A stretch of DNA of 47,142 nt from Escherichia phage 2G7b: sequence record NC_049954.1. One strand, written 5' to 3'. Shown here in pieces: positions 35,185 to 37,990 of this stretch. Numbering within the stretch: the first letter of the stretch is position 1; each line of letters opens with the position of its first letter. Below the pieces are notes generated by a model that saw only the letters and a list, made by a program, of their open reading frames with translations, searched no databases and had not been told where the DNA came from. The position numbers and the translations under genes are program-made.

Positions 35185-35216
35185 AAAGAGCCTGCCAGTC
35201 TGTTCCATTTGGCTTC
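35185..35216 (-). promoter_or_regulatory. putative nutL (boxA-like GCTCTTTAAACAACG followed by hairpin GTCGA-ctc-TCGAC)
   Basis: On the pL-sense strand, boxA-like motif directly followed by a short hairpin; the same boxA-hairpin arrangement recurs after cro. Confidence 0.55.
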
Positions 35217-35454
35217 CAGCGTCCTGCTGACGGTTAAATAGTACGATATGTACTTTACAAGATCAATACAATTTGTTGTAAGTTGGCGTGGTTTTTTATA
35301 ACGCTTTGTATTTAATAGTGTTGTTTTTTAGCGTGGATGTATTGCCTCGGCGATGTAAGGAGAGATCAGAATTGCGTGGTTTAGTGGGTTGTATCTATTT
35401 ATTTTTCAATAAATACAATTGGTTATGTGTTTTTAGGTGGGGCGATCGTGAGGC

Positions 35455-35480
35455 AAAGAAAACCCGGCGCTGAGGCCGGG
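35455..35480 (-). terminator. rho-independent terminator ending the cI operon (AACCCGGC-ctcagc-GCCGGGTT + TTTCTTTG)
   Basis: Hairpin plus T-rich tract on the minus strand immediately after the stop of the 163-aa ORF. Confidence 0.7.
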
Positions 35481-35972
35481 TTATTGTTGCTTGAGTTTTT
35501 CGTTATAAATCTGTTTCAGCTTTATTGGTATGAAAAAAGAGCATCCAAATGAAATTATGCTTAGCCAGCATATAATAAACTCAAGTGCCAGACTCAGGTT
35601 GGTCACAGGCGGCTTGCTTGCTAAGATTTTACTGGTGTCTCCTGGTGGCAGCAGCATGTAGTAGAAGAATATTAAGCACAAGACTGTAAGATAGAGGTAA
35701 AAAAGCATCATGTAACGAGAAAACCGAATTTCGAATTTCCTCTTAGTTGCATACTTTTCTGATCTTGATTTACCTTCTGTAAACGATGCTACGTCTCCAC
35801 TTGTGGTTATAACAAGTAACAGAAACCCTGTTAATATTGAAAATATATTTGCCACAAGTCCAAGCAACTCTTTGTTATATCTAACCTTATCATGTAAATA
35901 ATAAGTTAATACAAGAGAAAGGCAGATAAAAAAGATTATGGAAAAAATATAACTCCAATCTTTACCTCTCAT
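35481..35972 (-). CDS. 163-aa integral membrane protein (four predicted hydrophobic segments), distal gene of rex-position cassette
   Basis: ORF MRGKDWSYIFSIIFFICLSLVLTYYL.. with hydrophobic segments at roughly residues 7-27, 35-57, 88-109 and 128-150; AT-rich; no similarity to lambda RexB that I can see. Confidence 0.7.
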   Translation of the reverse strand: MRGKDWSYIFSIIFFICLSLVLTYYLHDKVRYNKELLGLVANIFSILTGFLLLVITTSGDVASFTEGKSRSEKYATKRKFEIRFSRYMMLFYLYLTVLCLIFFYYMLLPPGDTSKILASKPPVTNLSLALEFIICWLSIISFGCSFFIPIKLKQIYNEKLKQQ

Positions 35973-36009
35973 TCACACCTCCCCCTTTGGTTATACGTAC
36001 GACCCTCCA

Positions 36010-36867
36010 TTATAGTATGAAATCCTTGAAGTGCTCAAGAATTTCCTTAGCGTGTTCCGCTTTTATGGTGGTAGAGCCATACTTTCTTGTGTAATAATCT
36101 TTTTTTGTTTTGATTTCAGAGCTTTTGATCGCTTGGCCTTTTGATGTTGTGATGAAGAACTCTTCCGATAATTCATCAATGATCAGGCTTGGATTTTTGT
36201 TCGCAATATTTAAGAGTTTTGGGTTATGTCTCTTGTCAAGAGTCAGAAGCCCATAGAAAGAGTTGTCATCATCTTGCTCTTTCTCAAATAATCTTGACAA
36301 AGCTTCTTTAGCTTTTCCAGTGATACCTAATGATGTTGCTTTTGCCTCTTCTAGATCTTCTTTTGTTGTTTCAATACTTAGGCTGATGGAGCGTATTCCA
36401 TCTTTTATTATCTTGCCAAGTGCATCTTTGTTGAGTTTCTCAGAAATATTCACATTGATATTCATGAGGCTAAATATTTTTTTTAACTTAGATAAAGGAT
36501 GAGTTCCTGATAGTTGAAAAATTGTTAGAATATTGCTTTCTGTTGCAAGCAAGAATATATGGCATTTATCATAATTATCTACATCCTGCAAATCGTTATG
36601 GTCTCCATCTTTTGGAGTTACCGGGACCAAAGCTTTGGGCTCATAGAGTGTTATCCCAGCAAAGATTTGGTCATCGTTAACTATTAGACTTTTTATCCTT
36701 GCCCGAGTGTCGTTAGAGTACTCAAAGTCATAGTTTTGTTTGAAATTTTCGCATGTCTTCAAGACATCTACAAATGAGCATCCGTCATTACAATCTACTT
36801 CAAATAGCGAAGTTTGTACTTTTTTGGGGAAATCTTTATTTTTTTCTTCCGAAAAATTCATTGGCAA
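36010..36867 (-). CDS. 285-aa soluble protein of unknown function, proximal gene of rex-position cassette
   Basis: ORF MPMNFSEEKNKDFPKKVQTSLFEVDCNDGCSFVDVL..; AT-rich, Lys/Asp/Glu-rich; same strand as and directly downstream of cI; no similarity to lambda RexA that I can see. Confidence 0.7.
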   Translation of the reverse strand: MPMNFSEEKNKDFPKKVQTSLFEVDCNDGCSFVDVLKTCENFKQNYDFEYSNDTRARIKSLIVNDDQIFAGITLYEPKALVPVTPKDGDHNDLQDVDNYDKCHIFLLATESNILTIFQLSGTHPLSKLKKIFSLMNINVNISEKLNKDALGKIIKDGIRSISLSIETTKEDLEEAKATSLGITGKAKEALSRLFEKEQDDDNSFYGLLTLDKRHNPKLLNIANKNPSLIIDELSEEFFITTSKGQAIKSSEIKTKKDYYTRKYGSTTIKAEHAKEILEHFKDFIL

Positions 36868-36960
36868 TCCTTATTTTTTAATAAATGATTTTCAGTAAAT
36901 TAATCAGTAAGTTGTTTAGCATAGGGTATGTGCGCTTTTGATAAATTACATGCAGTCACA

Positions 36961-37620
36961 TCACCCAAACGTCTCTTCAGGCCACTGACTAGCGATAACT
37001 TTCCCCACAACGGAACAACTCTCATTGCATGGGATCATTGGGTATTGTGGGTTTAGTGGCTGTAGAAACACCTGACCGCTATCCCTGATCAGTTTCTTGA
37101 AGGTAAACTCATCACCACCAAGTCTGGCTATACAGAAATCGCCTGGCTCAACAGCCTGCTCAGGGTCAACCAGAATTAACATCCCGTCAGGAAAGCTGGG
37201 CTTGGAACCTGTTGGTGCGGTCATTGAGTTACCTTCAACCTCAAGCCAGAATGCAGAGTCACTGGCTTTTTTGGTTGTGCTTACCAATCTCTCCGCATCG
37301 CCTTTGGTAAAGGTTCTGAGTTCTGGAGAGAACATCCCAGCCTGAACATGAGAAAAAACAGGGTACTCATATTGTTTTTTAACTGGGGCCGATGAGTATT
37401 CGCCAACAGGTGAAAATGTCCCGTCGTGGTTGAATGATATGTTATCAATACCAAGGTATTTAAACACCACTCCAATATCACTAAGAGATGGATGACGAGA
37501 TCCGCGCAACCAGTGTCCAATCCCACCCTGCGTCATACCTAGCTCTTCGGCTAACTTCTCTTGAGTTATGCCGAGCTCTTTCATTCTGGATCTAGCCAGT
37601 TCATACCATTTCATTTTCAT
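36961..37620 (-). CDS. cI: CI-type prophage repressor, hybrid: non-lambda N-terminal HTH domain with lambda CI C-terminal LexA-like domain
   Basis: C-terminal ~150 aa ([44 protein letters not shown]) match lambda CI including the Ala-Gly cleavage site and Ser/Lys dyad; N-terminal [40 protein letters not shown] is different. Start codon uncertain (37620, 37614 or 37656). Confidence 0.85.
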
Positions 37621-37662
37621 GTTCTTATTATTACGCTTTGTACTGGAACCATCCATGCACAA

Positions 37663-37730
37663 TGTGTATTTTTACTTGTATTCTTAAAGTACATATTGTA
37701 TTTTTTATTCGTGTTTACTATGGAGGGCAT
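37663..37730. promoter_or_regulatory. OR operator / pR-pRM divergent promoter region
   Basis: 68-bp AT-rich spacer between divergent cI and cro containing palindromes CACAaTGTG and TACAtatTGTA; GGAGGG ribosome-binding site before cro. Confidence 0.6.
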
Positions 37731-37946
37731 ATGAGCAACCTACGAAAATATCGAGAGTCACTGAATATCTCTCAAACAACACTTGCTAAGGCAGTTGGAT
37801 GCACACAGGGAGCTATCGGACATTGGGAATCTGGTCGTCGCTTCCCAGACCTTAAAACATGCCGTGCTCTTGTTGCGTGCCTAAACAAGTTAGGCGCAAA
37901 AGTCAGTCTTGATGACGTGTTCCCGCCGGAACACAAAGCCGCTTAA
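37731..37946 (+). CDS. cro: Cro-type HTH repressor (XRE family), non-lambda
   Basis: 71-aa ORF MSNLRKYRESLNISQTTLAKAVGCTQGAIGHWESGRRFPDLKTCRALVACL..; divergent from cI. Confidence 0.8.
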   Translation: MSNLRKYRESLNISQTTLAKAVGCTQGAIGHWESGRRFPDLKTCRALVACLNKLGAKVSLDDVFPPEHKAA

Positions 37947-37949
37947 TAA

Positions 37950-37990
37950 GCGGATCCGCTCTTTGTAACAACGGACATTCGTCCTACGTC
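37950..37990 (+). promoter_or_regulatory. putative nutR (boxA-like CGCTCTTTGTAACAACG followed by hairpin GGAC-attc-GTCC)
   Basis: Directly after the cro stop; boxA-like motif shares GCTCTTT..AACAACG with the nutL candidate. Confidence 0.55.

Follow-up and report, generated by a model that had tools for sequence, protein, structure and literature searches.

The stretch of DNA analyzed here, hereafter the window, is the whole 47,142-nt sequence of Escherichia phage 2G7b (NC_049954.1), which contains an immunity region of the lambdoid phage type between 34.1 and 38.4 kb; this work deals with the N-utilization (nut) sites on both sides of that region, nutL and nutR. The region is arranged in the order sieB (plus strand), the antiterminator gene N (minus strand), the leftward promoter pL, two unannotated genes and cI (minus strand), the rightward promoter pR, and then cro, cII and O (plus strand). 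The N/nutL and cro/nutR segments share 100% identity with Escherichia phage PhiR11_1, 99-99.8% with phages ev207 and ev017, and approximately 95% with many Shiga toxin (Stx)-converting phages, e.g., VT2-Sakai, Stx2 II and Nil2; in PhiR11_1, for which E. coli K-12 MG1655 is the host given in the record, the identity extends over the whole N-to-cII region. Our results indicate that the two sites are, very probably, the nutL and nutR of a lambdoid phage with a VT2-Sakai-type N, each built of boxA, a spacer hairpin, UACG and boxB (Table 1).

Table 1. Positions in the window of the nut site parts and of the associated features (dG, folding free energy).
Feature	Position	Strand	Basis
nutL boxA and rrn-like spacer start, GCUCUUUA-AACAACG	35177-35191	-	pattern search; core GCUCUUUA at 35184-35191
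nutL spacer hairpin GUCGA-CUC-UCGAC	35165-35177	-	dG -4.9 kcal/mol, z -2.6
nutL boxB UGGCU-GAAA-AGCCA (5-bp stem, closing U-A pair, 4-nt GNRA loop)	35147-35160	-	dG -7.1 kcal/mol, z -3.4
nutR boxA and spacer start, GCUCUUUG-UAACAACG	37958-37973	+	pattern search; identical VT2-Sakai feature
nutR spacer hairpin GGAC-AUUC-GUCC	37973-37984	+	dG -5.2 kcal/mol, z -3.5
nutR boxB UCGCU-GAAA-AGCGA	37989-38002	+	dG -6.5 kcal/mol
pL: -35 TTGATC (35266-35261), 17-nt spacer, -10 TACTAT (35243-35238)	35238-35266	-	read from sequence
pR: -35 TTGTAT, 17-nt spacer, -10 TATTTT	37676-37704	+	operator block shared with pL; VT2-Sakai annotation
N antiterminator gene, 90 aa	34776-35048	-	Pfam N_peptide PF25694, E=3e-32; phrog_271
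cro, 71-aa helix-turn-helix protein	37731-37946	+	Pfam HTH_3; Cro in PhiR11_1, VT2-Sakai annotation
tR1 region, Rho-dependent terminator zone between nutR and cII	38003-38087	+	H-19B homology; VT2-Sakai annotation

boxA motifs and placement of the sites in the early transcripts

A search of the 47 kb with the pattern GCTCTTT-N(1-3)-AACAACG returned exactly two matches, GCTCTTT-A-AACAACG at nutL and GCTCTTT-GT-AACAACG at nutR, and none in 100 shuffles, in agreement with the original prediction, made from the sequence alone, of a boxA-like motif followed by a short hairpin at both sides of the immunity region. That prediction gave a boxA consensus one nucleotide too long for nutL, and counted as boxA the AACAACG that is instead the start of an rrn-type spacer. 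In the RNA, the motif reads GGCUCUUUA-AACAA at nutL and CGCUCUUUG-UAACAA at nutR, both resembling CGCUCUU(U)A. In E. coli, the rrn boxA is UGCUCUUUA, followed by the spacer ACAAUUUA, and the boxA of lambda is CGCUCUUA (PMC2724277). The nutL core GCUCUUUA corresponds to positions 2-9 of the rrn boxA, and the ACAA that follows it matches the rrn spacer at its start, whereas the lambda boxA, one U short, is further from the rrn consensus than that of the window; the rrn system differs in that N protein and boxB are not needed and in the order of its elements. The boxA of H-19B is degenerate (CGCUAUUUU; none at nutL), and both H-19B and many epsilon34-class sites carry little or no boxA. The near-consensus boxA of the window, unlike that of H-19B, thus hints, as far as its sequence goes, at a normal use of NusB/NusE, as opposed to the reduced need for NusB/S10 that goes with the dispensable or degenerate boxA of the H-19B type.

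As a side observation, many epsilon34-class nutR sites (including that of locus L169), e.g., CACCACUUCCAACAACG, are without a recognizable GCUCUUU boxA, and retain just CA(A/C)CAA(C/U)G ahead of the spacer hairpin.

Both sites display the same order of elements, namely boxA, the spacer hairpin, UACG and a second hairpin of the form U(G/C)GCU-GAAA-AGC(C/G)A; the extent of nutL is 35147-35191 on the minus strand, and nutR begins 12 nt past the cro stop codon. The range first proposed for nutL, 35185-35216, lay approximately 20 nt too far upstream, covering the first 7 nt of boxA and no hairpin; that proposed for nutR included the spacer hairpin and ended at 37990, where the stronger second hairpin begins, and boxB was missed at both sites.

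Regarding transcription, the leader (A/G)TCAGCAGGACGC that lies right after the -10 hexamer of pL is unchanged in the window, P22, lambda and H-19B, and in the P22 record the 5' nucleotide of the RNA is marked at this conserved leader; on the basis of this annotation and of the leader homology with lambda and P22, the pL transcript would start at the G at about 35231. In addition, pL and pR share an inverted 28-nt operator/promoter block (35230-35257 and 37685-37712, 82% complementary), and the symmetry that this block provides places the putative pR start at the G at about 37711. A consensus promoter scanner reported neither pL nor pR, as their hexamers are too weak, and thus both were located via homology; in the homologous stretches, VT2-Sakai annotates the major leftward promoter with its operators and the major rightward promoter. 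With these starts, nutL would span about +41 to +85 of the pL RNA, with boxA from about +41, and would lie inside the pL transcript, as nutR would lie inside the pR transcript, upstream of the tR1 homologue. Hence, both hairpins described in the original prediction fold (Table 1), both sites fall within the early transcripts with starts placed by homology, and their assignment as nutL and nutR, on the strands proposed, was borne out.

The second hairpin as boxB and its coupling with the N protein

Five independent lines, namely annotations, homology with H-19B, the logic of conservation, the coupling with the N motif and a covariance model, all point to the second hairpin as boxB. Regarding the records, VT2-Sakai (AP000422) is 100% identical to the window from boxA through boxB at both nut sites and in N, in a surrounding immunity region with ~95% identity, and its 'putative N-utilization leftward/rightward' features run from boxA into the second hairpin, ending inside the boxB loop with the parts unnamed. 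The nut annotation of the homologous stretch in the 933W record extends through the second hairpin, and the epsilon34 GenBank record labels the same 14-mer, TCGCTGAAAAGCGA, as 'putative NutR - boxB'. Between nutL and nutR of the window, the loop U-GAAA-A is the same and the stems covary (GGC/GCC vs. CGC/GCG), the two sites being alignable over boxA, UACG and the second hairpin with compensating stem changes. Further, among the loci of the Sakai N class, a GAAA boxB was present at nutL in 82/82, and both nut sites of the window match the class consensus exactly.

Phages H-19B, 933W and HK97 display the same layout of boxA, spacer hairpin, UACG and boxB. The H-19B nutR reads CGCUAUUUUCACAAUG-GACAUUCGUC-CUACGU-CGCUGACAAAGCG; the first hairpin of the window aligns with its spacer hairpin, and the nutR boxB of the window aligns with CGCUGACAAAGCG, with the loop C as the sole difference; between the first hairpin and the cII start codon, the two phages differ by this one loop base and three substitutions. 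In H-19B, nutR contains two hairpins, of which N together with NusA/NusG protects the spacer and boxB, with boxA unprotected; the spacer is also protected by Rho, and the boxB loop contains the single-stranded G (PMC3526286). These footprints, together with the position of the single-stranded G, leave CGCU-GACAA-AGCG as the sole fitting boxB.

The original prediction implied instead that the N-bound boxB, with a new non-lambda specificity, was the hairpin directly after boxA (GUCGA-CUC-UCGAC at nutL and GGAC-AUUC-GUCC at nutR), which is indeed stable, occurs at both sites and occupies, a short distance downstream of boxA, the place of the lambda boxB. However, since its stems and its loops (CUC vs. 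AUUC) differ between nutL and nutR, it could not be read at both sites by one N peptide with a single arginine-rich motif. Moreover, its nutR form is identical across phages with different N motifs, its loop drifts in sequence and length inside one N class, and it aligns with the H-19B spacer hairpin rather than with the footprinted boxB, while a better candidate, with a loop identical at both sites, begins 4 nt after it. On these grounds, we regard it as highly improbable that the first hairpin is boxB.

The coupling between boxB and N was assessed in approximately 310 loci encoding N relatives, which were classified by the N-terminus of N and by the RNA found after the conserved pL leader or the nutR anchor (Table 2). 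Motifs of the form RRR(A/E)(R/H)RA.LQ (Sakai, 75/02, epsilon34 and Citrobacter) were always paired with a G(A/C)AA loop, and RRRERLKAKAL (H-19B/933W and SPN9CC) and the P22 motif were paired with G(A/U)CAA, in nutL as well as in nutR. Thus, the second hairpin changes its loop along with the N motif, whereas the first hairpin does not.

Table 2. boxB loops in the N motif classes (in parentheses, number of nutR loci).
N motif	Class	nutL loop	nutR loop
AASRRRARRANLQ	Sakai (window)	GAAA	GAAA (77)
AASRRRAHRAELQ	75/02	GCAA	GAAA (9)
A(A/S)GRRRERRAALQ	epsilon34 and Citrobacter prophage	GAAA	GAAA (39 and the Citrobacter locus)
SRSRRRERLKAKAL	H-19B, 933W, HK97	GACAA	GACAA (81)
SRARRRERLKAKAL	SPN9CC	GUCAA closed by C.C	GACAA (7)
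AKTRRHERRRKL	P22	GACAA	site without spacer hairpin

A covariance model trained on nutR sites alone found nutL at full length (35144-35193, E=7e-9), with nothing else in the 47 kb scoring better than E ~2. In the structure-aware alignment, 97.4% of the cells were paired, and changes on both sides were present in 4 of the 9 pairs, involving the two helices; none of 500 shuffles reached any of the observed pair measures, and slid registers collapsed. MAFFT alignments of the nut sites could not register the unrelated spacer stems or the 4-nt and 5-nt loops, and direct counting and the covariance model were used in their place. A scan of the GTDB species representatives contributed four loci.

As for the protein, the arginine-rich motif ASRRRARRA of N occupies residues 12-20 (GTAASRRRARRANLQ), and its C-terminal module LPNVALYAAGYRKSKQLTAR is also present in P22 gp24 and in H-19B N. 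The match with gp24 is limited to the last 24 residues (67-90, 79% identity, containing the gp24-type module LPGVALYAAGHRKSKQITAR), no match of N to gp24 was found by tblastn outside the C-terminus, and a comparison with lambda N gave no match like that to gp24; the proposal that N carries a P22 gp24-like C-terminus, and not a lambda-like one, was thereby confirmed. The P22 combination of the arginine-rich motif GNAKTRRHERRRKLAIER with a GACAA boxB is replaced in the window by GTAASRRRARRANLQ and GAAA, and the N helix RRRARRA is nearer to lambda RRRERRA than to P22 RRHERRR. Overall, the identity of N amounts to 100% with its VT2-Sakai counterpart and to 41% with that of H-19B.

Among the known systems, the nut architecture is shared by H-19B, whose N (127 aa, compared with 90 aa in the window) shares the C-terminal module, and whose differences lie in the boxB loop (GACAA in H-19B and 933W, one base more than GAAA), the N motif (SRSRRRERLKAKAL vs. 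AASRRRARRANLQ), the boxA and the nutL spacer stem (GAUUC/GAAUC, unlike GUCGA/UCGAC). The window therefore has an H-19B-type nut architecture but belongs to a separate specificity class, on account of its four-nucleotide GAAA loop, its 41% identity in N and its other arginine-rich motif. The label '933W-type' was considered for this N class and discarded, as the 933W record has a 127-aa H-19B-type N and a GACAA boxB. The pL leader of P22 is closely similar up to boxA (CGCUCUUUA), and the upper stem of its boxB, CU...AG, is as in the window; P22 differs in having no spacer hairpin, the motif AKTRRHERRRKL and a GACAA pentaloop, the C of which is looped out and contacts the peptide (PMC12550061). 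Lambda shares the boxA-spacer-boxB logic, the closing U-A pair, the GNRA-type fold and a motif, RRRERRA, close to RRRARRA, and differs in its pentaloop (GAAGA or GAAAA), the fourth base of which is extruded, its linear spacer of 8-9 nt, the unrelated C-terminus of its N, and Trp18, which is absent from the N of the window. Lambda N reads a GNRNA pentaloop folded as GNRA with one base extruded, for which the closing U-A pair is needed (PMC12027372); judging from its sequence, the U-GAAA-A boxB of the window is of the GNRA type, with the predicted fold of the lambda and P22 boxB minus the extruded base. The prediction of a non-lambda boxB specificity thus stands narrowly, given that the loop has four bases and not five, and is weakened by the resemblance of the N helix to that of lambda. 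For epsilon34, 'a novel BoxB specificity' was predicted in the genome paper from the N-terminus of N, with the RNA undescribed (PMC2629481).

Three sets of observations in the compared sequences are worth recording. The window contains four U-GAAA-A hairpins with 5-bp stems, against 0.09 expected; those at 35399-35412 (minus strand; a stem made entirely of A/U pairs, within the AT-rich spacer upstream of pL) and 31334-31347 (minus strand; inside the exo coding sequence) were examined as nut sites and rejected, since they are without boxA and have no nut-model score. In SPN9CC (locus L170) and seven related loci, the nutL boxB is GCUC-C[GUCAA]C-GAGC, in which a C.C mismatch closes the pentaloop, as in the P22 nutR CCGC-C[GACAA]C-GCGG, and the nutR of these phages, UCGCU-GACAA-GGCGA, has a U.G closing pair. 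Finally, contig L048 (IMGVR_UViG_2531839234_000006) combines a Sakai-type N and nutL with a lambda-type nutR, CGCTCTTACACATTCCAGCCCTGAAAAAGGGC, located ~2.8 kb from N; it was discarded as evidence of cross-recognition, as its match breaks in or next to cI and no complete phage in the collection is so arranged, and represents either an isolated recombinant or a chimeric assembly.

The spacer hairpin between boxA and boxB

The first hairpin of nutL lies flush between ACAAC and UACG (P=0.003 in shuffles), and in the relatives the spacer hairpin always directly abuts ACAA(C/U) on one side and UACG on the other. This position is filled by four unrelated stems, namely GUCGA/UCGAC, GAUUC/GAAUC, GGAC/GUCC and GGCC/GGCC, and for the first three families shuffled spacers gave such a flush hairpin with P values of 0.0002-0.04. 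Variants of the nutR stem include the G.U intermediate GGGC/GUCC and the compensated pairs GGGC/GCCC and GGCC/GGCC, and the nutL loop drifts among relatives over a fixed stem (CUC, ACUC, ACAC, AUC, GCAC, ACAU). The nutR hairpin GGACAUUCGUCC is identical in the nutR of H-19B, 933W, epsilon34 and SPN9CC regardless of the N type, and is common to all N motif classes of Table 2 except P22; the nutL stems GUCGA/UCGAC and GAUUC/GAAUC are likewise distributed across the N classes without a class pattern. The spacers of lambda and P22 were also examined and contain no flush hairpin.

The distance between boxA and boxB in the window is 33 nt, and subtraction of the 12-13 nt of the hairpin leaves 20-21 nt, compared with 20 nt in P22 nutL. 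Judging from these lengths and from the pairing kept over changing sequences, the spacer hairpin most likely acts as a distance reducer that would fold 12-13 nt away. A different view is that it is not a passive reducer but a protein-binding element, such as the double-stranded RNA site of NusB-NusE, a site for the NusA KH domains, or, at nutR, part of the loading site of Rho. In this direction point the protection of the H-19B nutR spacer by N plus NusA/NusG and by Rho (PMC3526286), the binding of NusA to only the spacer of lambda nut RNA (PMC2724277), and a double-stranded RNA site of NusB-NusE that is contiguous with its boxA site (PMC3177189), to which may be added that the flanks of the hairpin, ACAA(C/U)G and CUACG, are better conserved than boxA itself, and that the nutR loop ACAUUC recurs in the lambda nutR spacer CACAUUCCA. 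Nevertheless, the tolerance of four unrelated stems and many loops argues against a sequence-specific contact, and the AUU motif is missing from the nutL spacer loops and from several nutR variants, for which we judge a protein-binding role unlikely and favor that of a distance reducer.

Read on the opposite (plus) strand, the nutL spacer hairpin at 35165-35177, followed by the boxA complement GTTGTTTAAA, was reported by a terminator scanner as a weak terminator-like site, which faces transcription arriving from sieB.

Proposed mechanism and features of the surrounding region

According to the mechanism that we propose, following the steps of N-Nus-nut antitermination in lambda and H-19B (PMC8632103, PMC3526286), transcription from pL and pR would expose the near-consensus boxA in the nascent RNA as a site for NusB-NusE (S10). 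A short hairpin of free sequence but maintained pairing would then fold 12-13 nt aside and bring boxA and boxB to ~20 nt of each other, as in P22; at nutR, this hairpin would fall within the spacer region contacted in H-19B by NusA and Rho. boxB, with its 5-bp stem, U-A closing pair and GAAA loop, would be bound by N through its arginine-rich N-terminus, NusA would bridge N and the spacer, and the P22/H-19B-type C-terminus of N would engage RNA polymerase. The resulting N-Nus-nut complex would remain on the polymerase and take it past tR1 into cII-O-P, and also past the leftward terminators. This assignment of proteins to the parts of the nut sites is borrowed from the published H-19B and lambda work, and by the same analogy the sites of the window are presumably functional in N-dependent readthrough.

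That the sites might instead be non-functional relics of a decaying prophage is hardly credible, considering that N is intact, with 100% identity to its counterpart in inducible Stx phages, that the N-to-cII region is fully identical to that of the PhiR11_1 phage genome record, and that both nut sites fit the class consensus exactly.

Several points weigh against our interpretation of the locus. The transcription starts, as proposed above, rest on homology. The sequences compared are related and mosaic, amounting to approximately six independent lineages, and the alignment used for the pair counts was fitted to the model. The role of the spacer hairpin as a reducer leans on an idea that reportedly goes back to Neely and Friedman in 2000. 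A sequence search of the PDB returned no solved structure for this N class or its boxB, and in the open-access literature no description of this boxB loop class was found. Finally, the minimum-energy fold of naked nutL RNA (35144-35193) pairs GGCUCUUU of boxA with GAAAAGCC of boxB (loop and 3' arm) at -14.1 vs. -12.0 kcal/mol, and boxB is formed ~4% of the time, the two-hairpin fold returning when boxA is held single-stranded. This alternative pairing was not seen in folds of nutR or of relatives, including the nutL of 75/02, and in light of these models it may be incidental.

Regarding novelty, the sites themselves are already known, given that they are annotated in VT2-Sakai and that the architecture was dissected in H-19B, and the present finding is a refinement of a well-understood system; its value is for annotation, as nutL and nutR can be correctly delimited and divided into their parts in this group of phages, with the second hairpin as boxB. 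The only mildly new point is a natural class of four-base GNRA boxB, one base off the 933W/H-19B class. To our knowledge, all N-boxB complexes solved so far contain a loop of five or six bases, with the extra base aiding recognition of the peptide or NusA. It is possible, if still somewhat doubtful, that the N lineages of VT2-Sakai, 75/02 and epsilon34 read a true four-base GNRA boxB (GAAA/GCAA) with no extruded base. If so, one loop-base insertion or deletion and a few changes in the motif would constitute a natural orthogonality switch between the Sakai-type and H-19B/933W-type N of co-resident Stx prophages, and NusA would need a contact with the complex other than an extruded loop base, perhaps via the spacer hairpin; as a weaker addition, given the possible pairing of the nutL boxA with half of boxB, the binding of NusB-NusE to this boxA might be needed to free boxB. 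In this phage family, N antitermination governs delayed-early and, via Q, late (Stx) gene expression, and several prophages, with an N of either the Sakai or the 933W/H-19B type, are often present in E. coli O157 strains. With the two boxB types one loop base apart, cross-activation between prophages is a fair question.

Downstream of nutR, the tR1 region contains the hairpin UAUGCGU-UUCC-ACGCAUA (38032-38049, plus strand) and differs by just three substitutions from the H-19B nutR/tR1 segment, which is the one used in the Rho and N assays (PMC3526286); in the homologous stretch, VT2-Sakai annotates a putative Rho-dependent terminator. Just 5' of the nutR boxA, the palindrome CCGCTTAATAAGCGG (37939-37953) covers the tandem stop codons of cro, and its minus-strand reading was called terminator-like by the terminator scanner.

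On the leftward side, the start codon of N lies approximately 100 nt past the nutL boxB, with the Shine-Dalgarno sequence GGGAGGAA ahead of the ATG at 35048. The whole 193-nt N leader folds at z -3.9, and between boxB and the ribosome-binding site of N it contains a long stable stem-loop, GAUGCAAU..CGAAGC / GCUUCG..AUUGCAUC (35062-35132, minus strand), presumably reminiscent of the RNase III-sensitive hairpin of the lambda N leader. In a search of the window against Rfam, which contains no nut family, no nut match was obtained; the sole family matched was Lambda_thermo, the cIII thermoregulator element (32890-32948, minus strand, 88.5 bits).

Lastly, the two unannotated genes (35481-35972 and 36010-36861, both on the minus strand) occupy the position of lambda rexB/rexA, between cI and a bidirectional terminator at 35461-35482 that borders them. 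Their products, of 283 aa and a hydrophobic 163 aa, are near in size to RexA (279 aa) and RexB (144 aa). Neither protein had a Pfam or PADLOC match or similarity to RexA or RexB; the larger matches solely phrog_23561, of unknown function, and both genes are 'hypothetical' in PhiR11_1. This gene pair is a candidate prophage exclusion pair co-transcribed with cI.

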